A DNA stretch of 64,000 nucleotides. Origin: Actinomycetota bacterium. Its GTDB lineage: Bacteria > Actinomycetota > Geothermincolia > Geothermincolales > RBG-13-55-18. The notes under the pieces were generated by a model. The model saw only the letters and a list, made by a program, of their open reading frames with translations. It was not told where the DNA came from and ran no database searches. The stretch spans positions 292,715 through 356,714 of the forward strand of contig JACIXC010000001.1 of the NCBI GenBank assembly GCA_014360655.1. Direction: 5' to 3'. This document shows positions 73 through 64,000 of this stretch, one piece after another. The position numbers were made by a program, and so were the translations under genes. The number at the start of each line of letters is the position of its first letter. The stretch's first letter is position 1.

Positions 73-162
73 AGTTCTTTCCGCGCTTCCGCGTCGCGCC
101 GCCCGCGACCGCGCCCACCTGCCTCCCCATGGGAACCTCGGCCGTCGCTGCGTTATTCCGTC

Positions 163-191
163 TTGCCTTTTGGGGCGGCGGCTCTCATAAT
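163..191 (+). promoter_or_regulatory. sigma70-like promoter for tRNA-Lys: TTGCCT, 17-bp spacer, CATAAT
   Basis: The -35 hexamer is at 163-168 and the -10 hexamer at 186-191. The tRNA 5' end at 201 lies about 10 nt downstream. Confidence 0.5.
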
Positions 192-200
192 ATATCGCGT

Positions 201-277
<77 letters not shown>

Positions 278-346
278 CCCTTTCAATGGGCGTTTTTCAG
301 CAGGGCGAGCATGCCTGCCGCCTGTGGCGGTTGCGCATCCCTTCTT

Positions 347-2017
347 CTACGCGCCGCCCTTGTAGTGGTCCTTGAACTCCTCGCGCGCCAGCCTCTTGGC
401 GATCTTCCCCACGGAGGTCTTGGGGATCTCGTCCACGAACAGGACATCGTCCGGAAGCTGCCACTTGGCGAACTTGGGGGCTATGAATCCCAGGATGTCC
501 TCCTTGGAGACCTTTCCCTTGTACTCCTCCCGGAGGACCACCAGGGCCAGGGGCCTCTCCTCCCACTCCGGGTGGGGAATGCCTATGACCCCCGCCTCCA
601 GCACGGCCGGGTGGGCCACGATGGCGTTCTCCAGGTCAACGGTGGATATCCATTCGCCCCCGCTCTTCACGAGGTCCTTGAAGCGGTCCACTATCTTTAT
701 GTAGCAATCAGGGTCGATGGTGGCCGCGTCGCCGCTCTTCCAGTACCCGTCCTCGGTGAAGGACTCGGCGCTGCGCGGGTCATTATAGTACGAAGCGGTC
801 ACCCAGGGGCCCCTGATGAGCAGCTCGCCGACGGATTGCCCGTCGCAGGGCAGCTCCTTCCCCTCCTCGTCCACGAGCTTCACGTCGATGCCCACCACGG
901 GGATGCCCTGCCTCCTCTTCATGTCCCACTTCTCTTCCTCGGAAAGGCCTTCCAGGGTGGGCTTGAGGAAGTTTATGGAAACCAGGGGGGTGGTCTCCGT
1001 GGCGCCGTAGGCGTGGATGACGTCCGCCTTCCCCAGCTCCCAGTACTCCTTCATCATGGCCAGGGGCGGCTCGCTGGCCCCGGAGACCATGCGGCATCCC
1101 TTGAGATCCGGCTTGGGGTCCATGGTGCGGATGTACTCCAGCATGGGCATGAAGATGGCCGGCGCCCCACAGGTCACCGTGACCCCCTCGGACAGGAGCA
1201 TGTCGACCAGCACGTTGGCCATCTCCAGGGTATACATCCCGGGGAAGACCAGCTTCGCCCCCACCAGGGGCCCGGTGATGAAGGCTCCCCAGCCCAACAC
1301 GTGGAACATGGGGGTTATCTGCATCATAACGTCGTTCCGGCTCAGGTTCAGGTTGATGGCCACGGCCAGCGTGTGGAGGTAGAGGGCGCGGTGGGACAGG
1401 TAGACGCCCTTGGGCTTGCCGGTGGTCCCGGTGGTATAGCAAGCGGAGCAGGCAGCCTTCTCGTCCACCATGGGCCAGTCCATCTCCGCGTCCGCTCCCT
1501 GCAGCAGCTCCTCGTACGCGTACAGCGGGCTGAGCTGCGTCTGGAAGGAATCCCTGGGGCGGTCGGTGATGAGCATGTAGCCCTCCACCGTCTTGAGCTC
1601 CGGCGCGATGGGCTCGATGAGCGGCACGAGAAGGTCGGAGGTACATACGAGCTTGGCCTCGCTGTGATTGATGACGTAGGCCCGGTCCTCCATGGACACG
1701 CGTGGGTTTATCTGCAGGAGCACCGCTCCCAGGCCGGAGATGGCATAGAACAGCTCCGCAAAGCGGTAGGTGTTGAACTCCAGGACCCCCACCCTGTCGC
1801 CGGGGCCTATGCCCAGGCCTTGCAACGCCTTGGCAAGGCGGCACACCCGCCGGTAGCATTCCCGGTAGTCGTAGCGGAAGACGCTTCCGTCCAGGTTGCG
1901 CGAGGCCACCTCCACCTCGCCGTAGGACCTCGCCGCGTGCCTCAGGATGGTGGGCACGTTGAGCTGGTAATCGTTGTTGGAAGTGGAAGGAAATCCCTGT
2001 ACGATCCGGTATCCCAT
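347..2017 (-). CDS. AMP-dependent acyl-CoA synthetase/ligase (long-chain fatty-acid--CoA ligase family)
   Basis: The 611-aa ORF was trimmed to the ATG at 2017 (MGYRIVQGF...), which is preceded by an AGGAGGTG RBS. It carries AMP-binding motifs (YTTGTTGKPKGV, GYGATE, the SGD...G...I.DR.KD box) and the C-terminal PKTSVGKI motif. Confidence 0.85.
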   Translation of the reverse strand: MGYRIVQGFPSTSNNDYQLNVPTILRHAARSYGEVEVASRNLDGSVFRYDYRECYRRVCRLAKALQGLGIGPGDRVGVLEFNTYRFAELFYAISGLGAVLLQINPRVSMEDRAYVINHSEAKLVCTSDLLVPLIEPIAPELKTVEGYMLITDRPRDSFQTQLSPLYAYEELLQGADAEMDWPMVDEKAACSACYTTGTTGKPKGVYLSHRALYLHTLAVAINLNLSRNDVMMQITPMFHVLGWGAFITGPLVGAKLVFPGMYTLEMANVLVDMLLSEGVTVTCGAPAIFMPMLEYIRTMDPKPDLKGCRMVSGASEPPLAMMKEYWELGKADVIHAYGATETTPLVSINFLKPTLEGLSEEEKWDMKRRQGIPVVGIDVKLVDEEGKELPCDGQSVGELLIRGPWVTASYYNDPRSAESFTEDGYWKSGDAATIDPDCYIKIVDRFKDLVKSGGEWISTVDLENAIVAHPAVLEAGVIGIPHPEWEERPLALVVLREEYKGKVSKEDILGFIAPKFAKWQLPDDVLFVDEIPKTSVGKIAKRLAREEFKDHYKGGA

Positions 2018-2257
2018 GCGCGCACCTCCTTTTTCCTGTGGCCGCATCATGCCGGCCCGCCGACAGCCGGTACCCCCGCCGGAAAGGGTCAAGACCTTTC
2101 GCGAGCGCGCCCATGAAACGGGCGTCGCAGGGCGTCGCAGGCTCCCTTCCCGCAAAAGCTCTTTATGAAAAGATTTTATCATAAGGCGTAACGCGTCACC
2201 CCCGGCGTCGCGCCCACGTGGCCGAGGGGCGCGGCCACAAGGGCTATGCTCCCGCCG

Positions 2258-3349
2258 TCACGCCCCTCCCTGCCCCTGCCGTTCACCCCTGCGTTCCGCC
2301 TTGCCCTTGAGGATGGCCAGGCCCATGTCCACCATGCGCGCGAAGGGCTCTTCCCGGTCCTCCCGCAACACCACGGAGATCGCCTCGCCCGGACAGCTTC
2401 CCGCGCAGAGTCCGCACCCGAGGCACCTCTCCCGGTCGACCACCGCCACCTCCTTTACCCGCACCGCCCCCACCGGGCAACGCTCCACGCACGACCCGCA
2501 GCCGGTGCATTCCTCCACGTCGACCACCGCCTCGAAGAGGGCGTTAAGGAAGAGGCGCTTGTCCATGCCCCTCCTGGTGATGCCCTTCATGGAGGCGCAG
2601 CAGCAGGGGCAGCAGTTGCAGATGTTGGAAAGGTGCCTGGTGTTGGCGCCCGCATGGACCAGCCCGGCCTCGTCCGCCCGCCTCAGGATATCTATGGCCT
2701 CCGCGGCGTCTATCTCCCGCCCGATGCCGTTCTCGATGTAGTACTCCGCGGCCGTCCCGAAGCTGAGGCAGGTCTCCATGGGAAAACCGCAGCCCTTCCC
2801 GGTAAGCGCCGCCTCCTTGCGGCAGATGCATTCCGCCACCGAGATAGCCCGCGCGGACCGCACCTGGTCCAGCAGGTCCAGGAACGGGTACACCGTGAGG
2901 TCGGCCACCACCCTTTCCCCGAGGGGGAGCACCTTGAAGCCGGGGACGCCGCTGGCGCCCATCTCCTCCATGTAGGCCGACTCGTAATACTCGCGGTAGA
3001 GTGCGGCCAGCTCCCCGTCCATCTTTCCCACCGAGTACTCGTAGAGGCCGATCATGAAGGGGGCGGTGTTGTAATAGGCACGGCCTTCCCTGCGCGAGCG
3101 GAACAGCAGCCCCTTGCGCGACATCTCCTCCAGCCTCTTATCCAGGTACGCGGCGTCGAGCCCGGCGCGCGCGGCGATGGCCTCCGCATCCTCCGGAAAG
3201 GGCGTGAGCAACGTGGCCAGCTCCGCCTCCTCCTCCGTGAAAAGCGCTTTCAGGATGCGTATCTCCACCCCGGAGGGGGTGGAAGGAAATCCCAGGGGCA
3301 TGCGGTCCAGGAACTCGCGCAATCTCCGGTAAGCGTCGTCTTTCGCCAC
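2258..3349 (-). CDS. Fe-S protein with a CxCCPCCC cysteine cluster plus two CxxCxxCxxxCP ferredoxin motifs and an N-terminal wHTH-like region (paralog A)
   Basis: 363-aa ORF. Motifs seen are ICNCCPCCC, CTGCGSCVERCP and CLGCGLCAGSCP. It is a paralog of the CDS at 28005..29063 with the same architecture. It lies immediately upstream of, and co-directional with, the acyl-CoA ligase gene. Confidence 0.75.
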   Translation of the reverse strand: MAKDDAYRRLREFLDRMPLGFPSTPSGVEIRILKALFTEEEAELATLLTPFPEDAEAIAARAGLDAAYLDKRLEEMSRKGLLFRSRREGRAYYNTAPFMIGLYEYSVGKMDGELAALYREYYESAYMEEMGASGVPGFKVLPLGERVVADLTVYPFLDLLDQVRSARAISVAECICRKEAALTGKGCGFPMETCLSFGTAAEYYIENGIGREIDAAEAIDILRRADEAGLVHAGANTRHLSNICNCCPCCCASMKGITRRGMDKRLFLNALFEAVVDVEECTGCGSCVERCPVGAVRVKEVAVVDRERCLGCGLCAGSCPGEAISVVLREDREEPFARMVDMGLAILKGKAERRGERQGQGGA

Positions 3350-3375
3350 GTCGGCTCCTTTCCCCGTGAAAGACC

Positions 3376-5514
3376 TCAGAAGAGCTGGACCACCAGGGCG
3401 TACGGTTGTGGGGCCATGGGGACGTTCGCGGCGGCTATCTCCAGCGTGTAGGTTCCCGGTTTCCCGGACACGTCCAGGACCACCCTCTCCACGTTGTTCA
3501 GGGGATCGCGGGAGGTCCTTCCGTTCGGGTAAGAGAACCCTCCCTCGGGATCGATGACCCTGAGGTCGAGGTCGTTCACCAGGTGAAGCCTGGCCTGGGG
3601 AAGGGAGGGGTAATCCGACCAGGCCAGGGTCACCCTGAGTTGGCTTCCAGTTTTTACCTCAACGCGGAAAACGCGCGACTCTCCGCTGCGCATCCCCTCG
3701 CCGTCGTCGATGACCCTTAACCAGGTTTCCCGGTCCGTGGGCGCAGTGAAGTCGCACTTCCCCCATCCCTCCACCGGGTTGGGCGCGCGCGGCACCTCCA
3801 AGCCCGCCTCGCCGTACTGGCCGGGATACAGGTCCAGCGCACCGTTCACCAGGAAGGCCTTCACGAGGGCGGCGGACGGGGGCACGCCCCTCGCCGCCGT
3901 GAGCTCGGACCTCAAGGAGGCCACCCTTCCCGCCACCAGCGCGGCAGCCACGCCGGTGCCGTAGACCACGCACGTGCGGTCGCCGACGGGAAACGCAGCG
4001 GGACGACCCGCGGTTCCCGCCGCGGCGAAGGTGACCACTCCCGTCGCGGCGGCGACCAGGTCCGGCTTTATCCTGCCGTCCGTGGTGGGACCCCGCGAAC
4101 TGAAAGCGGCCATCCCCGGGGTCGATCCTTCCGCCCTGTCTTCCTTCAGGGGAGAGGCGGGGAAGCGCCCCGCAAAGGCGCCTTCCAACTCGCCGTAGGT
4201 GGGGACGCGGTAGCTCCCGGCGCGGCCCGCACCCTCGCAGCCCCCCACCGCAAGCACGTTCTTGGCCGCCGCTCCCCCCAGCAGGCTCCCCCTGTCCACC
4301 ACCCCGTCCCCGTCAGCATCGGTGCCCTCGTTCCCCGCCGGCTCCACTATAGTCATGTCCGCATGGTCCCAGGCAAATGCATCCCTCTGAAAGCCGTAGA
4401 TCCCGTAGGCACAAAGGGATTCCCTGCCCTCAGGCACGCTGCCGTCGAGGAGCGACCTCGCCCCCTCCAGGTATGCCCTCTCCAGCAGCGCGGTCATGGA
4501 GGCCGGCTGCGGCAGGGGGCCGATCCCGTATCCGGTGGCATAGACGGCGAGCTCGACGGGGTTCGGGCGCGCCGTGTCGCCTTCCGAGGACAGCGAGTCG
4601 CCCGCGAGCAGAACTCCCGCCAACGCCGTTCCGTGCCCGCTCACGTCCTCTCCCTCGTCTCCCCGGAAGGAGTAGACGCCGGTCACCCTGCTCCTGAGCG
4701 TCTGCGGCAGGCCGTCCGCGCCCGCGCTCGCCAGGCCGCTATCGGCGAGGGCGACCTTCTCCGGCCGAGTGGAGACGGCAGCGGCGTGATCGGGATGGAG
4801 ATCGCCCGCCGACGCGCCCCGCGGCGAGGCGACCGCGTTCCCGGCCAGGGTACCGCCGGTGTACAACTCCAGCCACTCCACGGCGCGCAGGGCGGCCACC
4901 TCGTCAAGCATGTGCGGCGCCACGCGCATGACCAGGATGCCGCACCACGCGTCCTTCTCCCCCTCCAGGACCTCCACGCCCATGTCGCGCAGCGCCCGCG
5001 CCGTCTCCTCCAGCAACGAACCGTCGTAGAGAAGGGCCGCCACCGTCGCCTCGCGTCCCTGCGAGAGCTGCAATTGCAGGGACGGGGACACCTTGAAATA
5101 GGGCTGGTATATTCCCGTCCAGGAAACGAATGGCAGGCCCTCCACCCCTGCGCGTTGCCGGTTGTCCACGGCCACCAGCAAGGCGTTGTAGGGGATGTAG
5201 CCGCAGACCTTCCCCCCCGCTTCCCGCACCGCCTCCAGCCACGATCCCTCGATGCTCCCCGCGCACTGCACGAGATAGAGACCGGACGACCGGTACCCGT
5301 CGACCCGGAAAGCGGGGGGGATGCGGCCCGCGTCATGGTCCCAGGGATAGATGGCGCCGTTCGTCAGGAGGACGGGGAAACCGGGCGACGGACCGGGCTC
5401 CTGCGCGCGTGCGGCGTCCCCCGAGCCGACCGCGCCGCACGCCGTGAGCAGGACCACCGCGAGGATCACGGCTTTCGCCCGGCGGCAAAGCCTCCCGTTA
5501 CGCGAGCACATCAT
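3376..5514 (-). CDS. Subtilisin-like (S8) peptidase homolog; lipoprotein; catalytic Ser apparently replaced by Gly
   Basis: Trimmed to the start MMCSRNG... The signal and lipobox read LLTACG. The S8 motifs for Asp (LADSGL), His (SGHGTALAG) and Asn (EPAGNEG) are present. At the Ser position the protein reads VVYGTGVAAALVAG instead of GTSMAAP. A FSSRGP motif precedes it. Confidence 0.75.
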   Translation of the reverse strand: MMCSRNGRLCRRAKAVILAVVLLTACGAVGSGDAARAQEPGPSPGFPVLLTNGAIYPWDHDAGRIPPAFRVDGYRSSGLYLVQCAGSIEGSWLEAVREAGGKVCGYIPYNALLVAVDNRQRAGVEGLPFVSWTGIYQPYFKVSPSLQLQLSQGREATVAALLYDGSLLEETARALRDMGVEVLEGEKDAWCGILVMRVAPHMLDEVAALRAVEWLELYTGGTLAGNAVASPRGASAGDLHPDHAAAVSTRPEKVALADSGLASAGADGLPQTLRSRVTGVYSFRGDEGEDVSGHGTALAGVLLAGDSLSSEGDTARPNPVELAVYATGYGIGPLPQPASMTALLERAYLEGARSLLDGSVPEGRESLCAYGIYGFQRDAFAWDHADMTIVEPAGNEGTDADGDGVVDRGSLLGGAAAKNVLAVGGCEGAGRAGSYRVPTYGELEGAFAGRFPASPLKEDRAEGSTPGMAAFSSRGPTTDGRIKPDLVAAATGVVTFAAAGTAGRPAAFPVGDRTCVVYGTGVAAALVAGRVASLRSELTAARGVPPSAALVKAFLVNGALDLYPGQYGEAGLEVPRAPNPVEGWGKCDFTAPTDRETWLRVIDDGEGMRSGESRVFRVEVKTGSQLRVTLAWSDYPSLPQARLHLVNDLDLRVIDPEGGFSYPNGRTSRDPLNNVERVVLDVSGKPGTYTLEIAAANVPMAPQPYALVVQLF

Positions 5515-5679
5515 ATCCACGTCCAAAAGCGATCTGCCGGTAAGGCTCCCAGGGAAGCCTCGTGGCACTGAGCCAGTGGGCCGGTCGAGTTCGCCCTCCG
5601 CCTCCCGCCGTCAGCCCTCCCCAGCTTGCCCTTTGGCCCGCCGGGTCGGCGCGACACCAATCCGCTTCCGCGTATCCAC

Positions 5680-6669
5680 CTAGGGGATGCGCTTCCAGGA
5701 GCGCACTTCCTCCATCATCGCCTCCAGGTTCTTCAGCGGCGCTTCCGGGGGCACATCGCATCCGGTGGAGAAGACGTAGTTCCTTATCGCCTTGGTGTTC
5801 CTGAGCAGCCGCCGCGTCTCCCAGCGCACGTCCTCGGCGGTCCCGCGGTGAACAACCCTCTTGGGGTCCAGGTTGCCCAGCACGACGACGCTCCTGGGAA
5901 GGCGTTCCGCCGCCTGGGCGATGTCCATGCGCGCATCCAGGAGCACGCCGTCTCCGCCGCAGCTGCCAATCTCATCCAGGAGGTGCGTCACGTCGCCGCA
6001 TATGTGCAGCATCCCGCACGCTCCCCCCGACCTTATGATGCCGAAAAGGGCGCTGAGATAAGGGCGGTAAACGGTGCGGAAAACCCTGGTATCGAGGGCT
6101 TCCGCCACCGGGTCCACCACCATGACCACGTGCGCCCGCGAGGCAAGGGCGGCGGCGTACTCCCCCACCACGGAGGTTGCGAAGGCAAGGGCGTCCTTCA
6201 TGTCGCTTCCCTTTCCCATCTCCGCGAGCATATCCGTCGTCCCCGCGAGCTGGGAGAGAAGGGTCAGCGGGCCGGTGACGAAAGCCCCGCACAGGCCCGT
6301 CCCGTCAGCCCGCAGCTCCTCCGCCACCCTGAGAAAGAGCGGCATGCGCGCCGTCCTCTCCGGGTCCGGCGGGTCCAGCTCCATGAACCTTTCAAGGCGC
6401 GGCAGTTCCTGCTGCGCGAGGTTGGGCGGCCTTCTCTCGAAGAACTCCACATCCAGGCCGAGCGCCTCCGCCTCCACGGTCGGGTCCAGGAGCGTGAAGG
6501 TTATGTCGGGCCGCAGGCGTTCCCGCAGGGCGCGCAATGCCTCCAGCTGCACCTCGGCATCGTTTACCGCGCCGCGTACCGACTTTCCCGCCAGCCTCAC
6601 CCCGGGGTATCCCACCAGGGGAGCCGCAAGCCTGCCGCTCTGGCTCACCACCCAGTCATAGAAGTTCAT
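5680..6669 (-). CDS. Uroporphyrinogen decarboxylase (URO-D) family protein, MtaA/CmuA-like methyltransferase type
   Basis: 329-aa ORF with the overall URO-D fold signature. It starts at the ATG at 6669, which is preceded by a GGGAAGGGAAGG RBS. Confidence 0.7.
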   Translation of the reverse strand: MNFYDWVVSQSGRLAAPLVGYPGVRLAGKSVRGAVNDAEVQLEALRALRERLRPDITFTLLDPTVEAEALGLDVEFFERRPPNLAQQELPRLERFMELDPPDPERTARMPLFLRVAEELRADGTGLCGAFVTGPLTLLSQLAGTTDMLAEMGKGSDMKDALAFATSVVGEYAAALASRAHVVMVVDPVAEALDTRVFRTVYRPYLSALFGIIRSGGACGMLHICGDVTHLLDEIGSCGGDGVLLDARMDIAQAAERLPRSVVVLGNLDPKRVVHRGTAEDVRWETRRLLRNTKAIRNYVFSTGCDVPPEAPLKNLEAMMEEVRSWKRIP

Positions 6670-8414: not shown

Positions 8415-11400
8415 TCAGGCCCTCAGGGCACCGCCGTCATAGAGGGGAAGCGCGTTCTCCCCATCGGGCTGAGGGATATGCACCGTAAAGACGGAACCCT
8501 TGCCGCGTTCGCTCCTCACCTCGATGCGCCCGTCGTGCGCTTCCACCAGTTTGTTTACGATGTAGAGTCCCAGCCCCATCCCCTTTATGGTGCCCCCTTC
8601 CTTTCCTTCCCCCTTGCGGAAAGGCTGAAATATGAGGTTCACGTTCTCCTCGCTGATGCCCTGTCCCTCGTCCCTCACCCCCAGGACGACCTCCCTCCCT
8701 TCCCTGTGGGCGAAGACCTCGATCCTGGAACCGGGAGGCGAATACTTGGCCGCGTTGTCCATGAGATTGAAGAGGACGATCTCCAGCTTGTCGCGGTCGG
8801 CAATCACGCTGGCGGCATCCTCCGCTATGTCCACCTCCACGACGTTATCTGAGGACCTGGCGCGAAGTTCCTCCACCAGGCTCCCCACCATGGTCACGAG
8901 GTCCACTTCCTCCAGGTCCACCGCCAGCTTGCCCGACTCCAGCCGCGAGACTTCCATCATGTTGATGACGCTGCGCCGCAGGCGGTCCGCGGCCTTGCGC
9001 AGCTTCTCTATGATCTCCCGGCTCTCCCTGCCGTCCAGCGTCTGCCCGTATTCGCGGAGCACCTCCGAAAAGCCCATGATGAGGGTGAGGGGGTGGCGCA
9101 ATTCGTGTGAGGCCATGCTGATAAGATCCGTCTTGGTCTTGAGGTTCTCTTCCTGGCGGCGGCACATGTCCTCCAGAAGACCGATGCGGGCCTGCAGGGC
9201 CTCCACGCGCAGGGGAACGGAAACCGCCATGCCGAGCAGGCCCGCCGCCCTCTCTATCAACTCCGTCTCCCGCTCCGCGAAGGCCCCTCCCCTGACGCTT
9301 CCTACCAGCAGGATACCCTTGATGCCCTCTCCGAGAAGGGGCACCGCGACGTAGGACCTTATCCCCCGCAGTGCCAGCCTGTCCTCTCCCGGCCCCCACA
9401 GGAAGGTGTTCAGGTTGTTCCTCACCAGTTTCCCGCTACGGGCCAGGGAAAGGGCGAGCGCTCCCTGGGGGTCGACGATGGCGGCGAACTCCTCCTCGTC
9501 CAGGGCTTCTCCCTTCATCCATCCCACGTGCCTTGCTCCCGTCTTTCCCTGCAAAGATGCCAGGAACAGGTCAACGGAGGCGACGCTCTCGAGCTCCCTG
9601 TAGAGACCCCCGCACGCTTCCTCGAGGGAAACGGCCGCGGAAAGACGCCTGGAGATGCGCAACAGTATCTTGCTCACCTGGAGATGGTCGCCGCTGCGCG
9701 CCCTTTCCTGCATGGACTCGAGCACGGAAACAGCCTGTCCCGCAAGGAAACAGGCCAGCCTCAGGTGGAATTCCCGGAAGGCCTCCCGGCCGTCGTTGCG
9801 CTCCAAGAGGATGGCGCCCAGAATGCCCTTTCTCCCCGCCAGGGGTACCGCTATGCGCCATCCCGAATCCCCTTCACCGCTCTCCCCAGCGGGGACGCCG
9901 TTACGCAGCGAACAATTCCCCTGTAGCGCCTCCACCATCTCCGGCCTCGTGAGGAGGGTCATGTCAAGGCTTTCCTCCCCCGTGCCGCAGTCCATCACGC
10001 CCTCGAATCTCTGCGCCTCACCGTCTATCACCGCGACCACCGCGCGGTCGCAGCCGAAGAGCTCCCTCCCTCCGCGTGCCAGTATACGCAGGGCCCTCCC
10101 CTGATCGTCGCACGCGGCCAGCTCTCCTTCCAGCTCCGCCAGCATCTCGAGCGAACGGCGGTACTCCTCCGCGCGCAGCCTCTCATCCACGCCTCCCGCA
10201 AGGTGCAGCATCAACCCCGCCAGGGAGGGAAGGGAGTCCAGCTCCGACTTGGTGAACCTGCTGTCGCCGGGCAGGTAAAAGCCGCAGAGAAGGAACCTCG
10301 TACCTGCGCGTGCCGGGACCAGGAGCAGGGTCAGGCCGCCGGCCGTCGCCAGCTCCGAGGCGGGCATCTCCTCCATGGCGGGGCTTTCGGGTTTCACCAC
10401 CGACATGCGCTGCAGGCCTATGGCAGCTTTTTCCAGCCCGCCCGTAGTGCGAAACAGCTTCTCGCCGCCGTATACGGCGTCGGCATACCAGAGAAACGAC
10501 CTCTCCTCCGTCCCCCGCCCGCCCATGTAAGCGAAACCCATGCGCGCGGACAGTTCCACGCATACCTTGCGCAGCCCCGACGAGAGGAACCCCTCGCTGT
10601 CCGCAGCTTCCTCGGCGATACGGGTCAGGTCCTCTATCATGGCGGGCAGATCCCACGCGGATGACCTCCGCGCCTCCCGCTGGGTGGAGACTCCCTCCTC
10701 CGCGAAGAGCTCGCCCAGACGGTGCGTGACCTGGACAAGCAGCTCCATGTCCTGCGGTCCCATGGCCGTGTACGTGCGCCCGAAGAGGGTGAGGATGCCC
10801 ACCAGCTGATCCTCGCGAAAGATCGGGGTGAGCAGGAAAGACTTCACCTGGTTGGCGTGGAAATACGGCTTGACGGCGGGGAAAAACTCGCTGATGCGGT
10901 TCGCGTCCAGGCTCAGCTCCCTGTCCCCCGAACGGCGCAGCGACTGCAGGAGCTCGGGCAGGTTCTCCTCGAAGAGATGCTCGATCAGGTCAGGCATGCC
11001 GCCCCATCCACGGGAGGCGATGAGCACGGCCATCTTCTCCTCCTCCGGACCGCGCAGGCGGTGGACGGTCCCCCCGTCCACGTTGAAAAGCTTGATGAGG
11101 AGATCGAGGCTGAGGGAGGCGGCCCGCACGCAGTCCGTCCTCCCTATCACGTAATCGGAAAGTATCCCCAGCTCAACTTCCGGGCCTTCCTTGGCCCCGG
11201 CGATCTCCCCCAGCCGGTCCTCCAGGGCGAAGAGCTCCACCATGCGTTCCAGCACGACGCTGACCGCCGCCGCCTTGAAAGACTGGGGGTCGGGGAGGGG
11301 GGCATGGGGGGCGAGGGCGACCAGGAGCACCGCCGTAAGGTAAGCGTGGCTGCGGATGGGGAAGAGGAGAACGTGCTCGACCGGCGTGACGGTGATCTCC

Positions 11401-11696: not shown

Positions 11697-12029
11697 CTCA
11701 CATCTCCCCTCACATACCGGCAACCCGCGTGCTGCGGCGTTTTCCCGGGAGGACCTCCTTGCGCGCGCAGGGTCGCCCTAACGCCTCACCCGACCTGGTC
11801 ATCGTTATTCATCATTATCATATAATTATTTTGCCCGCGTTCGTTTAATCCTTCCCCGGGTCAGCGCGGCGCGGCACCCCCTTGTCCCCGCAAGGCAACG
11901 ACCCCTCGCGTCAGCCCGACATGCCATGGTGCGGAATCGGAGCCGGGCATGCCCGTGCAGTGCGGAACGCCTCCGTGATCTCCACCCCCTGGAGAATGGA
12001 AACGGTAGGGGCTTCCCCGCCTGAAACCC

Positions 12030-32130: not shown

Positions 32131-32523
32131 AAAAGGGGAGGGAGTGGGCCTGTAAGCCGGATTCTGTACCCGGGGGGATGCCCCGGGCGGTGGTCATCCA
32201 TCTGGGACCGCCGTTACCGGCGGCCTCATGCGGCCTACCCGAGCCTCGAGCGCCGCGGGCCACGGCATCGGCTCCTATTTGGCCTTGCTCCGGGAGGGGT
32301 TTACCAAGCCGGCCCCGTCACCGGGACCGCTGGTGGGCTCTTACCCCACCTTTTCACCCTTGCCCCTGCCCCCATGGGGGGCGGTGGGCGGTTTCCCTTT
32401 CTGTGGCACTTTCCGTCGGGTCACCCCGCCTGGGCGTTACCCAGCTCCCTGCCCTGCGGAGTCCGGACTTTCCTCGAGCGCGCCGGCCGGCGCACCCGCG
32501 ACCACCCGGCCTACTCCCTCCAC
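32131..32523 (-). ncRNA. rnpB: RNase P RNA, bacterial type A
   Basis: Three universally conserved segments are seen on the minus strand. GAGGAAAGUCCGGACUCC is the P4 5' strand (plus 32458-32478). ACAGAAUCCGGCUUACAG is the P4 3' strand (plus 32152-32169). GGUGGGGUAAGAGCCCACC matches the GGUGCGGUAAGAGCGCACC region. The P1 stem GGAGGGAGUAGGCC pairs with GGCCCACUCCCUCC, followed by a U-run. Confidence 0.85.
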
Positions 32524-59862: not shown

Positions 59863-60273
59863 GTGGGCACAAATTCCTTGAAGCTATCTCTAGTGATAGA
59901 CGGGCCCCTACTCGAGCCGCTCAATATCGACGCCGACACGCCCCTGGAAATAACCACCAACGGAGAGGCGTTGATCATCACGCCCGTGCGCGATAAGAAG
60001 CGCCGTCAGGACTTCGAGGCAGCCCTGGAGAAAGCCGATCGCCAGTACGGCAGGATGCTCAAGAACCTGGCGGGCTGGATTGCCGGGCTTGTATCCCTTA
60101 CCCTGGCCCGGGTGATCGAGATACACCGGGACCAGATGTGTCGCTGCGGCGGCAGCCCCGGCACACGAGACCTCGATCTTCTTAAACCCGCCCTGACCAC
60201 GCCCCGGGCTGGCATGGGAGGGCAATATATCAAGGGATCCGGCTTAAGAAAAAGGCCACGAGGGGCCCGTTGA
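59863..60273 (+). pseudogene. Decayed TA locus: AbrB/SpoVT-type antitoxin-like N-terminus fused in-frame to the first 45 aa of a Doc/Fic-type toxin, then truncated
   Basis: Residues 20-75 resemble AbrB-family antitoxins (LEITTNGEALIITPV...ALEKADRQYGRMLKNLA). They continue without a stop into LTLARVIEIHRDQMCRCGGSPGTRDLDLLKPALTTPRAGMGGQY, which matches the Doc N-terminal pattern (iH..li..fGG..GiRD.glLesAl.rP). The Doc core HxFxDGNKR is absent. The ORF ends 2 bp before direct repeat 1. Confidence 0.5.
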
Positions 60274-60275
60274 TC

Positions 60276-60308
60276 GGTGGGCGTTAAGGGATCTGGAAGA
60301 CCTTTCCC
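60276..60308 (+). repeat. 33-bp direct repeat, copy 1 (GGTGGGCGTTAAGGGATCTGGAAGACCTTTCCC)
   Basis: Matches 61075-61107 at 30 of 33 positions. Together the copies flank the RHH/RelE cassette. Confidence 0.85.
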
Positions 60309-60465
60309 TGTTTACTGTCCTGCTTGAGATGGGTATTACGCCGCCGGCAAAGGAGGATTCACATGGTGCGTCACCTCGATGGGATAGGATGATATCTATA
60401 GGCATGGTAAAATACATGTGATACAATAACATACATAGAATACTTACTGGGATCGGAGGTACAAA

Positions 60466-60684
60466 GTGAGTAAGGCGATCTCGATCAGGCTGGATGAACA
60501 GGTGTTGAAAGAACTGGAGGACCTGTCTAGGGCAACGGAGCGCTCCCGTACCTTTCTCATCAATGAGGCCATAAAGACTTACATTGCGGAATACGGCGAT
60601 TACCGCGTGGCGCTCGACCGTCTCCTGGATAAGGACGATGAGCTGATCAGCGGCTCGGAGCTGAGGAGAAGGCTTGGGCTTTAA
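60466..60684 (+). CDS. RHH-type antitoxin (RelB/DinJ/ParD/CopG family)
   Basis: The GTG start is preceded by GGAGGT. It begins with an RHH beta-strand (MSKAISIRLDEQVLKELEDLSRATERSRTFLINEAIKTYI). Its 3' end overlaps the toxin gene. Confidence 0.75.
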   Translation: MSKAISIRLDEQVLKELEDLSRATERSRTFLINEAIKTYIAEYGDYRVALDRLLDKDDELISGSELRRRLGL

Positions 60685-60928
60685 GGTAGTATACAAAGCC
60701 TCGGTCGAGAAGGATCTCAAGAAGATAGATAAAGCCGAGGCGAAAAGGATCTTGAACGGAATAGAAGGCGACTTGGCGAAGGATCCCGATAAGGGAGCTG
60801 CCTTAAGCGGAACATTCCAGGGGTTATACAGATACAGGATCGGCGATCACAGGGTCATATACGCCAAGACGATTGATGGGGTATTGGTGTTGCGCATCGG
60901 CCACAGAAAAGACATCTATCGCGTCTAG
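60674..60928 (+). CDS. RelE/ParE-family toxin
   Basis: 84 aa. The sequence fits the RelE/ParE pattern (...KDLKKI...GLYRYRIGDHRVIYAKTIDGVLVLRIGHRKDIYR). A TTG start overlaps the antitoxin stop. Confidence 0.75.
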   Translation: MGFKVVYKASVEKDLKKIDKAEAKRILNGIEGDLAKDPDKGAALSGTFQGLYRYRIGDHRVIYAKTIDGVLVLRIGHRKDIYRV

Positions 60929-61074
60929 GATGAAGCCGGTGATCAAGCCGGAATGAGGAGTCGCCAGACGGGTATGCGAGGCAAGTCGGAAACTGTAGAA
61001 GCCGTTAATTGGCGGACTGGCAGATACGCCAGAGATATTAGGAAGCCGGGCACAGAGCCCGGCTTCTATTGCTT

Positions 61075-61107
61075 TGGTGGGCGTTAAGGGACTTGGAAGA
61101 CCTATCC
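61075..61107 (+). repeat. 33-bp direct repeat, copy 2 (GGTGGGCGTTAAGGGACTTGGAAGACCTATCCC)
   Basis: See copy 1. It ends 37 bp before the stop of the HEPN-like gene. Confidence 0.85.
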
Positions 61108-61143
61108 CCACTAGTAGTCCTCGATGAGGTGGTATGAACGGCT

Positions 61144-62564: not shown

Positions 62565-63035
62565 TCATTGTGGTGCCCGCAACCTTTTCAACATCTCAAG
62601 ATAATCTTCGGGCAGTTCCCAATGCGTTGCCCCGGATATAATATGGCGTAAATAGTCTTCAGCAGGAGTATGCTCTTTGTCAGATTTATTTGCAGCAACA
62701 TAGATGAATGCTCCTAACGGTCGATCTTCATCTCCATTCACAAGCACGCTGGTGCAACAACGCTCGTAGGCGTTATTCTCACCCTTGCCATAATAGCCCT
62801 CATAGGTATCGAGTCTCTTCAATTCCTCTTTCGAGATGTCATATACAACCCCCCAAACACCCGGGCTGGCATCATCCTCTACGACATCGGCAACCCAGCT
62901 TCTGCGCTTTTCTGAATATCTCGTGAATGCGAGCCGGAAGCGCGGGAGAAGGGCCAGGCATCTGAATTGGTAGGATGGGCAACGCTCCTTCATCTGCTTG
63001 GGGTCCAAGTTGGAGCCGTAGGCGAAGTACAGCAT
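62565..63035 (-). CDS. Gamma-glutamyl cyclotransferase-like (GGCT/AIG2-like) protein
   Basis: The N-terminus MLYFAYGSNL is the hallmark YGSNL motif of GGCT/AIG2 folds. A strong AAAGGAGGTG RBS precedes the ATG. The catalytic-Glu candidate cannot be confidently assigned by eye; checking it is the first test. Confidence 0.65.
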   Translation of the reverse strand: MLYFAYGSNLDPKQMKERCPSYQFRCLALLPRFRLAFTRYSEKRRSWVADVVEDDASPGVWGVVYDISKEELKRLDTYEGYYGKGENNAYERCCTSVLVNGDEDRPLGAFIYVAANKSDKEHTPAEDYLRHIISGATHWELPEDYLEMLKRLRAPQ

Positions 63036-64000
63036 CTTCCCACCTCCTTTTACCTTCTGATTATATATGCTGCCGAAGACAGACTCTTGCTATGCCTTTA
63101 TCGCCGGGCGAATCGCGGCATTGCCGGCGTCCCATCGATGTCTCGCCTTGCGGGGCATTGCTATCTTCCCCCATAAAACACAGGCGCGCATGGCTTCGCC
63201 TTCCCCCTCGCCTCGCCGGGCACCGCTCACCTATCCCGGCCCTCCCGGGAGAGGCGGAGGCCGCGCCTCGCGGCGCCCCGCCTTGCGGGGCACGGATGGG
63301 CCTCCCCGCAAGGCGCACCAGCGTGGGGCTTCGCCCCATCGCGCCCGGCCTCGCCCATCCCATGCGGCGAGGCCAGCCCCTTGCCGGGCTTCGCGTCACG
63401 GCTTGCGGCGAAGCCCGGCCGGCCCGGCATGGCGGATGCGATCCGCGCATCGCCGGGAGGCGAGGCGCAAGCCTTGGAGGAACGTGCAAACGGCTTTGAG
63501 CCTGGCTGGCGCGCACGCATAGTACGCAAGCTGTGTGGAAATAAGCCCATCGCATCACGCATGACGGTGCCGTTCATGGGAGGATAGGTGGAGGAGTTTG
63601 AGGGGGTTGCGGAGCCGAGCGCGGCCGTTTTCCGGGGGGTTTCCCCGCCCCGCAGGCATGGCCTCTGGGCTGGGATTATGCCCTTCCCGGCCCTCCCGCT
63701 CCCGGCGCCGTTTTTTTTAGCCGCTCTGCGTGGGGAACATTTGGCCTCGCATACGGTCGCCCCTTTTCCCCACCTAGTTCCCAGCCTTCTTCCCTATAAG
63801 CATCTGCGCACCGCCCCGCCGAAATCTTGTGGCCACATTCTCACATGGCGATTCGGTTGCCTGCCCGCGGATGGCCGCTCGGGGTTCCCTGCGGCCGAGA
63901 GGTGCCGGAACGAGCCTCTGCTAAACGCAAGAAAACAAAAGTAAAACCCAGAAAACCCCAAAAACTACAAAAACCCCAAAAACCAAAAAAGATAAAACAT

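Follow-up and report, generated by a model that had tools for sequence, protein, structure and literature searches.

Chromosomal integrons are arrays of small cassettes, each ending in a recombination site, in which toxin-antitoxin (TA) cassettes carry their own promoters and cassette order is shuffled between relatives. In Dehalococcoides, islands lie in tandem at ssrA, each bounded by a repeat of about 20 bp of the 3' end of the gene together with an adjacent conserved motif; the insertion point was inferred to lie in the T-loop, the genome has its main zone of plasticity there, and for some of the islands, which carry no integration module, cis-mobilization was proposed (PMC3146451). The cis-mobilizable elements (CIMEs) of the ICESt1/ICESt3 model are flanked by attachment (att) sites, carry neither integrase nor transfer genes and lie in tandem at the 3' end of a tRNA gene, and in their accretion newer arrivals insert at the att site that contains the gene end (PMC5704250). 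The tycheposon islands of Prochlorococcus are found beside tRNA genes, with partial tRNA copies between elements and fragmented integrases; new elements push older ones further in, and extra partial tRNAs mark older events (bioRxiv 10.1101/2020.12.28.424599). Here we analyse a stretch of 64,000 nucleotides, hereafter the window, of contig JACIXC010000001.1 (positions 292,715 to 356,714) in the Actinomycetota assembly GCA_014360655.1, in which two 33-bp direct repeats bracket a TA pair. We conclude, with a probability of roughly 0.7, that the repeats are two copies of an att module, here called ATT, and that the TA pair is a small cassette in a tandem accretion array linked to tRNA-Val.

The pattern GGTGGGCGTTAAGGGAYYTGGAAGACCTWTCCC matched the window exactly twice, both times on the + strand (60276-60308 and 61076-61108). 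The two 33-bp repeats are identical at 30 of 33 positions and start 800 bp apart, and their likeness extends to about 57 nt at 75%. At up to three mismatches no further copy of the 33-mer was found elsewhere, and its degenerate form had no match in 100 dinucleotide-preserving shuffles. The original prediction, made from the sequence of this DNA, had placed the copies at 60276 and 61075, 800 bp apart; their number and spacing stand, whereas the second copy begins one base later than given. It had also taken them to bracket an intact ribbon-helix-helix (RHH) antitoxin/RelE-ParE toxin pair, and both genes do score above the Pfam cut-offs and lie between the copies. The repeats belong to a conserved module of about 60-100 bp, ATT, composed of a GC hairpin, a tRNA-identical core and a conserved arm. 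The locus comprises the following features, given by window position:

59863 to 60273, + strand: pseudogene open reading frame (ORF), in which a doc-partner antitoxin of the AbrB/MazE type, damaged at its 5' end, is fused to Doc residues 1-50; 87.6% identity by blastn to locus L001 of a relative
60227 to 60275, - strand: orphan 3' flank of a former tRNA-Val gene; matches the L001 flank, terminator scan
60275 to 60332, + strand: ATT copy 1, in which a diverged element-type arm (GGAAGACCT...) follows the core; nhmmer 45 bits
60333 to 60465, + strand: cassette leader, promoter and operator, with candidate promoters and repeats conserved across five genomes
60466 to 60684, + strand: RHH (RelB/CopG-type) antitoxin, 72 aa, intact; PF01402, 29.6 bits; dN/dS 0.06-0.10
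60674 to 60928, + strand: ParE/RelE-superfamily toxin, 84 aa, intact; PF05016, 50.6 bits; dN/dS 0.09-0.16
61041 to 61067, no strand assigned: GC-rich 'type I' hairpin, GGAAGCCGGGC-ACAGA-GCCCGGCTTCT, part of the repeat module
61075 to 61132, + strand: ATT copy 2, the core followed by the canonical arm; nhmmer 63 bits
61144 to 63035, - strand: start of a neighbouring integrated element, with a low-GC 468-aa protein and a GGACT/AIG2-like protein

The nature of the core is what identifies the module. Read in reverse complement, it equals the final 15-21 nt of tRNA-Val, from halfway through the T-loop to CCA: the core of copy 2 matches TGGTGGGCGTTAAGGGATTTG, the reverse complement of that 3' end in L001 and other loci, at 20 of 21 positions, and the core of copy 1 does so at 19 of 21. 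An att-like origin, one of the two offered in the original prediction, thus gains support, the core being a tRNA-Val 3' end and the copies delimiting the TA cassette. The other, duplication of a target, does not hold for the same core, which makes the tRNA gene the insertion target and not a Phd/Doc locus.

On the + strand, ATT consists of the GC-rich hairpin, about 10 nt, the core TGGTGGGCGTTAAGG(GATTTG), a 5-nt variable block and the arm TGGAAGACCT-TA-CCCCACTTRTCRTCCT. The consensus of 43 distinct copies reads hairpin AAGCCGGGC-N4-GCCCGGCTT, CTATTGCTC, core TGGTGGGCGTTAAGG, the 5-nt block and TGGAAGACCT-TA-CCCCACTT-RTCRTCCT-N4-GAGGC, with 90-100% conservation at most arm positions; GCCCT and GCCCC are the commonest forms of the variable block, and GGATT is its tRNA-like version. 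To the left stands either the type I hairpin, which is kept beside most copies and resembles a terminator for the TA operon (+ strand) or, in relatives, for the tRNA (- strand), or else the native tRNA terminator ('type II'). Core and arm together form an imperfect 9-bp inverted repeat with a 7-nt spacer. Upstream of the shared block the arm is no closer to the tRNA than shuffled sequence is, 716 of 2000 shuffles having scored at least as high, and these alignment scores ruled out the arm as a degenerate tRNA 3' half. Since the arm is not tRNA-like and RNA covariation is absent, the module fits a DNA site recognised by a protein and not a structured RNA. At 40-47 nt from the core the arms also conserve the motif GGAGGC(G/A)G (61122-61134 in the window), often followed by ATG and so similar to a Shine-Dalgarno sequence with a start codon; no conserved ORF was found after this motif in ATT arms.

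Searched with a hidden Markov model (HMM) of core plus arm (nhmmer), the 64 kb yielded only the two known copies. Species-representative genomes and metagenomes were scanned with the pattern GGGCGTTAAG-N5-TGGAAGACC, and about 30 loci of Actinomycetota metagenome-assembled genomes, among them Candidatus Solincola (class Candidatus Geothermincolia), proved to carry the module. There the copies form arrays beside tRNA-Val(TAC) or tRNA-Val(CAC), in the orientation of the tRNA except in L026/L053, and a tRNA-Val gene stands at the array end in L001, L009-L011, L016-L019, L023, L027, L029, L032 and L044. All convincing matches in relatives (32-70 bits) were in tRNA-Val arrays, on contigs bearing tRNA-Val or among the same cassettes; the remainder were weak and partial (15-22 bits), being either tRNA 3' ends themselves or strays in other phyla. 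Pattern matches in other phyla (L015, L021, L025, L028, L034, L036 and others) lacked arm and flanks and were rejected as chance, and viral contigs scanned with the ATT pattern and with the integrase of L027 gave no match. With only two HMM matches in 64 kb and with the linkage to tRNA-Val in relatives, ATT is therefore specific to this kind of locus. It is not a family of repetitive extragenic palindromes scattered over the genome, an outcome that had been named beforehand as refuting the cassette-border interpretation.

Several arrays show peculiarities of their own. 'Empty' tandem units of 90 nt (core, arm and terminator hairpin) occur at 3933/4023 in L001, 2797/2887 in L014, 3027/3117 in L024 and 1324/1414 in L040. 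The sole locus of mixed orientation has two inverted ATT copies about 150 nt apart (L026 5531-5790; L053 9459-9720), which may be the trace of an inversion between arrays. An ATT in L044 is followed after 90 nt by a decayed tRNA-Val copy, and the functional tRNA-Val(CAC) lies 2.3 kb further on (reverse-complement coordinates 9361-9520 and 11763-11837); the decayed copy is the remnant of a duplicated whole tRNA inside the array. A group II intron reverse transcriptase/maturase lies in the array beside tRNA-Val(CAC) in L016 (original coordinates 721-2127).

Comparison with relatives discloses the empty site. In the closest relative, L001 (GCA_013178005.1), AbrB-Doc adjoins the 3' side of the tRNA gene; the order there is ATT, AbiEi-AbiEii, ATT ATT, RHH-ParE, ATT, AbrB-Doc and tRNA-Val(TAC) on the minus strand, and L001-L004 have AbrB-Doc, the same flank and then an intact tRNA-Val(TAC). 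At the corresponding position of the window the tRNA body is replaced by an element-type arm, while the tRNA's own terminator flank is retained, complete with the intrinsic terminator of the orphaned gene (minus strand, stem 60268-60253 followed by a T-run). By blastn, window 59888-60227, from the middle of abrB to about doc codon 50, corresponds to L001 5038-5377 (87.6%); window 60227-60295 corresponds to L001 5737-5804, the flank of tRNA-Val(TAC) with its terminator plus the tRNA 3' end; and window 60399-61121, the RHH-ParE cassette, corresponds to L001 4152-4864 (86.6%). By these alignments the DNA entered at the 3' end of the tRNA, 49 bp downstream of the point at which doc now ends.

If a tRNA site (B-O-B') recombined with an element site (P-O-P'), four types of junction would be expected, and all of them exist. 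The tRNA joined to its native terminator is found at many loci, and the tRNA joined to the type I hairpin in L023, where a cassette encoding a 382-aa Fic protein lies directly in the tRNA end. The arm is joined to the type I hairpin between stacked units, window copy 2 among them, and to the native terminator in window copy 1, at 4031 in L001, and in L019, L024, L043 and others. Moreover, L038, L041 and L044 have left flanks that are identical up to the core, then similar arms and then unrelated DNA, and in the pairs L029/L048 and L035/L056 the right side is common and the left neighbours differ.

These junctions suggest the following course of events. DNA bearing ATT would have been inserted at the tRNA-Val 3' end by an integrase of the tyrosine type that acted in trans, so that integrase-mediated recombination at ATT is the inferred process; each integration would restore the end of the tRNA and its terminator and push older material outward. 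Under such outward displacement, copy 1, with element arm, core and old tRNA flank, is read as the distal, attR-like junction of the array. Copy 2 would be the junction of the TA cassette with a later, larger integrated element, of which it would represent the distal att site, and the tRNA body and any integrase would be expected beyond the right end of the window.

The interval between the copies (60309-61075) holds only the leader, the RHH and ParE genes, which overlap by 11 nt, and the hairpin; no integrase or transfer genes are present. The leader contains candidate promoters (TAGGCA-17-TACAAT at 60399-60427, and TAGAAT at 60436-41), and its ATACATGTGATACAATAACATACATAGAATAC is kept in five genomes, as are its ATACAT/ACATGT repeats. 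The antitoxin matched the RelB-like NCBIfam model NF048017 with 44 bits, below its cut-off, and the toxin reached 27.3 bits against RelE/StbE (TIGR02385), 0.6 bits under the cut-off. The toxin sequence could thus fit either ParE (a gyrase poison) or RelE (an mRNA interferase), with the ParE Pfam model above and the RelE/StbE model below cut-off. With a small RHH antitoxin gene upstream, an overlapping gene for a toxin of the ParE/RelE fold and an operator of the autoregulation type, the pair is like the type II RelBE/ParDE systems. It is under strong purifying selection, the antitoxin dN/dS having been measured against four orthologues, and it probably stabilises the array. The window, L001, L041 and L044 agree in the borders of the unit (arm to the left, hairpin to the right) but not in its neighbours, which differ in each, and the unit is found at both tRNA-Val genes. 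We infer that this 800-bp unit is an integrase-less, CIME-like mini-cassette. 'Cassette shuffling', as the locus had first been described, is a fair term: RHH-ParE, AbrB-Doc and AbiE occur in different orders and beside different neighbours in related genomes.

The AbrB-Doc ORF next to copy 1 has a history of its own. Among intact relatives, the closest have a 75-aa antitoxin of the AbrB/MazE type and, after it, a 128-aa Fic/Doc toxin, an arrangement that is the standard Phd/Doc-like architecture; the intact toxin of L001 matches TIGR01550 (DOC_P1) with 68 bits. The window module differs in being a pseudogene: the Fic motif HxFx(D/N)(A/G)NKR is deleted and the antitoxin is not intact. The AbrB stop codon is changed from TAG to TGG (60076-78) and the doc start codon from ATG to ATT (60079-81), and the first 12 or so codons, the ribosome-binding site and the promoter have no homology to the intact 75-aa relatives. 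This 5' damage had not been noticed before. What had been described was AbrB fused in frame to the first 45 aa of Doc and ending 2 bp before copy 1; the fusion and the 2-bp distance are correct, but Doc extends to about residue 50. Relative to L001, doc lacks the equivalent of 5378-5736 (359 bp, including the Fic motif HPFIDGNKRT), with the junction at about 60227. Since 60227-60275 retains the 49 bp that separate doc from the tRNA in L001, the insertion did not cut doc. The sequence thus favours a separate internal deletion as the cause of the truncation, and the earlier proposal that the insertion had truncated a Phd/Doc-like locus has to be abandoned. The 2-bp gap is coincidental, the ORF stop sitting in the old tRNA flank. 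The decay of AbrB-Doc (loss of the 5' end, of the stop and start codons and of 359 bp internally) would accordingly stand apart from cassette entry. As dN/dS is 0.41 in the abrB part and 0.63 in the doc part of the remnant, against 0.06-0.16 for the RHH and ParE genes, selection on the remnant is relaxed, and AbrB-Doc is a pseudogene while RHH-ParE is maintained.

Compared with the systems described above, the locus is closest to three. With the Dehalococcoides ssrA islands (PMC3146451) it shares a serial arrangement downstream of a small RNA gene, repeats of the gene 3' end and islands without an integration module. The target, however, is tRNA-Val, at two isoacceptor genes, instead of tmRNA; the ATT units go down to 0.8 kb (one TA operon) or 90 bp (empty); and whereas the Dehalococcoides islands usually carry a serine-recombinase module (dsiB), the ATT loci are mostly devoid of integrase and the one found is a tyrosine recombinase. 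Like a CIME, the window cassette is att-flanked, without integrase or transfer genes and in tandem with a neighbouring element. CIMEs are described as decayed ICEs (integrative and conjugative elements) or IMEs (integrative and mobilizable elements) of several kb (PMC5704250), while compact TA cassettes with conserved borders recur here in several species and look more like modular cassettes than random products of decay. The tycheposon islands resemble the ATT arrays in lying next to tRNA genes, in having elements parted by partial tRNA copies and in containing integrase fragments. They differ in host phylum and in cargo, which is for nutrient acquisition there and of the TA/defence type here; the Geothermincolia module has in addition a long conserved arm and a hairpin, and the window showed no intact element of the tycheposon kind. 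The accretion of CIME-like islets in tandem at a tRNA gene is a well-described process, encountered here in a little-studied actinobacterial lineage.

A number of observations weigh against accretion by integration at tRNA-Val. The mobility of the cassettes is read from sequence junctions, and no circular or excised form was observed. Neither ARAGORN nor Rfam detected a tRNA-Val within the 64-kb window, and no integrase was found there by motif scan, the Pfam run having covered the ORFs around the repeats only. Nearly every tRNA-Val(TAC) or tRNA-Val(CAC) of the clade has a resident ATT about 90 nt downstream (88-98), even without cargo, which a simple model of integration at the tRNA does not predict, and many ATT cores share just 15 nt with the tRNA. 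Housekeeping-like genes (amidohydrolase, FGGY kinase, PFL, P-type ATPase) lie between copies, so that ATT does not exclusively border mobile cargo. Finally, among about 45 related loci there is a single intact integrase, that of L027 (tyrosine integrase PF00589, 83.5 bits), on the atypical 5' side of the tRNA, opposite the ATT array. It belongs to a group of genes (original coordinates 135-4015; integrase, DUF3631, HTH_17 excisionase-like protein and CHC2 primase zinc finger) that abuts the 5' end of tRNA-Val(TAC), and the L027 element may carry its own tRNA-Val copy. In L009 the last 45 or so residues of a tyrosine integrase remain 90 nt from an ATT; a search for relatives of this fragment returned the fragment itself alone. 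Beside the fragment lies the gene for an HmaA helicase (Hma defence system, 1167 aa); the two lie within L009 2158-5963.

The main rival is homologous recombination between the modules of about 100 bp: ATT would be repeated DNA, originally linked to the tRNA, that is reshuffled by RecA-dependent homologous recombination or gene conversion with no dedicated recombinase. Such exchange would be in keeping with ATT copies 80-95% identical over 60-100 bp, with the swapping of hairpin and flank types between TAC and CAC loci, with the near absence of integrases and the presence of housekeeping-like genes between copies, and with a variable block that changes independently of both flanks (L035 versus L056). 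However, it does not account for the first acquisition of the module on both sides of unrelated cargo, nor for the tRNA 3' end and terminator in every copy, both of which a tRNA-integrating element must supply. Breaks are also sharp at the end of the core (in L041, ...GTTAAGGAG gives way directly to CCCATC; in L032 the core is fused to a 3' fragment of doc), and homologous recombination gives no reason for an integrase remnant and an intact integrase to lie at such sites. We regard reshuffling by homologous recombination alone as unlikely, although it deserves to be kept in mind.

An equally doubtful proposal is that ATT is the recombination site of an integron-like, tRNA-anchored cassette system specific to Candidatus Geothermincolia. 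Small, self-expressed TA/defence cassettes, each ending in hairpin, core and arm, would leave the array as circles and enter again at one or the other tRNA-Val gene, or at the ATT that resides about 90 nt downstream of it; a trans-acting tyrosine recombinase would be encoded elsewhere, and the two tRNA-Val loci would serve as exchangeable cassette libraries. What is unusual about the arrays, namely very small, recurrent and self-contained TA cassettes, a long conserved arm, the involvement of both tRNA-Val genes and an almost complete lack of integrases, leaves room for such a trans-mobilised system. The likeness to integron arrays is functional only: ATT has no attC structure, and the arrays are anchored by a tRNA gene and lack an IntI/attI/Pc platform.

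It is very improbable that the repeat is a minus-strand gene or element for a tRNA-like small RNA (a T-arm/acceptor minihelix that ends in CCA and has a terminator of its own) that borders cassettes by accident. Read in the tRNA sense, the unit is indeed AAGGTC-TTCCAAG-GGCCTT-AACGCCC-ACCA followed by hairpin and T-run, and 85% of cells pair in the T-arm-like helix. The RNAalifold consensus, however, is only -2.4 kcal/mol with essentially no covariation, no pair has a compensatory double change and variants break pairs without compensation; Rfam and ARAGORN gave no match, and past the core the arm is not tRNA-like. A transposon target-site duplication, a pair of integron attC sites or remnants of duplicated coding sequence can practically be dismissed, for although direct repeats do flank a small cassette, the heptamer GTTAAGG resembles the integron R' site GTTRRRY and all three repeat mismatches appear by eye to be synonymous in one frame, 33-57 bp is far too long for a target-site duplication and neither terminal inverted repeats nor a transposase accompany it, the heptamer ends in G instead of Y with no complementary RYYYAAC within 150 nt upstream, no conserved fold or covariation, no IntI in the window and a cassette that has its own promoter, and no ORF crosses either copy, the homology being to a tRNA gene and not to a protein.

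Beyond copy 2 the neighbouring element begins with the two genes listed above. Nothing in Pfam, PADLOC, NCBIfam or PDB matched the 468-aa protein, in which inspection by eye showed an RSRYVH motif (Rx4H, HEPN-like). In L038, L061 and L063 the orthologous GGACT gene adjoins ATT, and after it come a Replic_Relax gene, small ORFs and a type I or III restriction-modification (RM) system, from which copy 2 follows as the distal att site of an integrated element of larger size. In L038 (173-3097) and L061 (10001-12922) the partner of the GGACT gene is an unrelated 808-aa protein in place of the 468-aa one, and a GmrSD/HEC-05 gene takes the same slot beside ATT in L041 (original coordinates 678-2627). 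The position has the look of a defence slot with variable content at the end of a conserved Replic_Relax/RM-carrying integrated element. The window and all metagenome contigs of the strain stop before the other end of this element, with breaks at about 63.8-64.15 kb, and the shared position of these breaks suggests a repeated sequence just past the window. Positions 63000-64000 have a GC content of 0.67-0.72, no convincing ORF and several short repeats, among them a 9-nt tandem repeat (AAAACCCCA-like) at 63943-63987.

In the related loci, TA cargo between ATT copies comprises AbiEi/AbiEii, AbrB-Doc and RHH-ParE. Accessory cargo includes a long Fic protein, HTH plus ABC_ATPase, GmrSD/HEC-05, an SLFN/AlbA-type protein and a group II intron reverse transcriptase, and metabolic and transport cargo includes genes for amidohydrolase, FGGY kinase, PFL with its activase, P-type ATPase and glycosyltransferase. 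The description of the locus as a 'defence island' is thus right as regards a plasticity zone rich in TA and defence genes, but with metabolic genes between copies the zone is not purely defensive. Elsewhere in the window, RNase P RNA of class A (32137-32517, - strand, 295 bits) and tRNA-Lys(CTT) (201-277, + strand) are ordinary housekeeping RNAs.

By this analysis an unexplained repeat becomes a defined and testable recombination site, and in an uncultured class of actinobacteria the two tRNA-Val genes emerge as the main hotspots for the integration of TA/defence genes. The loci provide a natural series, from empty site through single cassette and stacked cassettes to decayed module, that can be used to study the accretion of integrase-less mini-islands and the persistence of TA pairs beside decaying neighbours. 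If it is true that the cassettes move independently, they would amount to an integron-like system of cassettes that has a tRNA att site as its basis.

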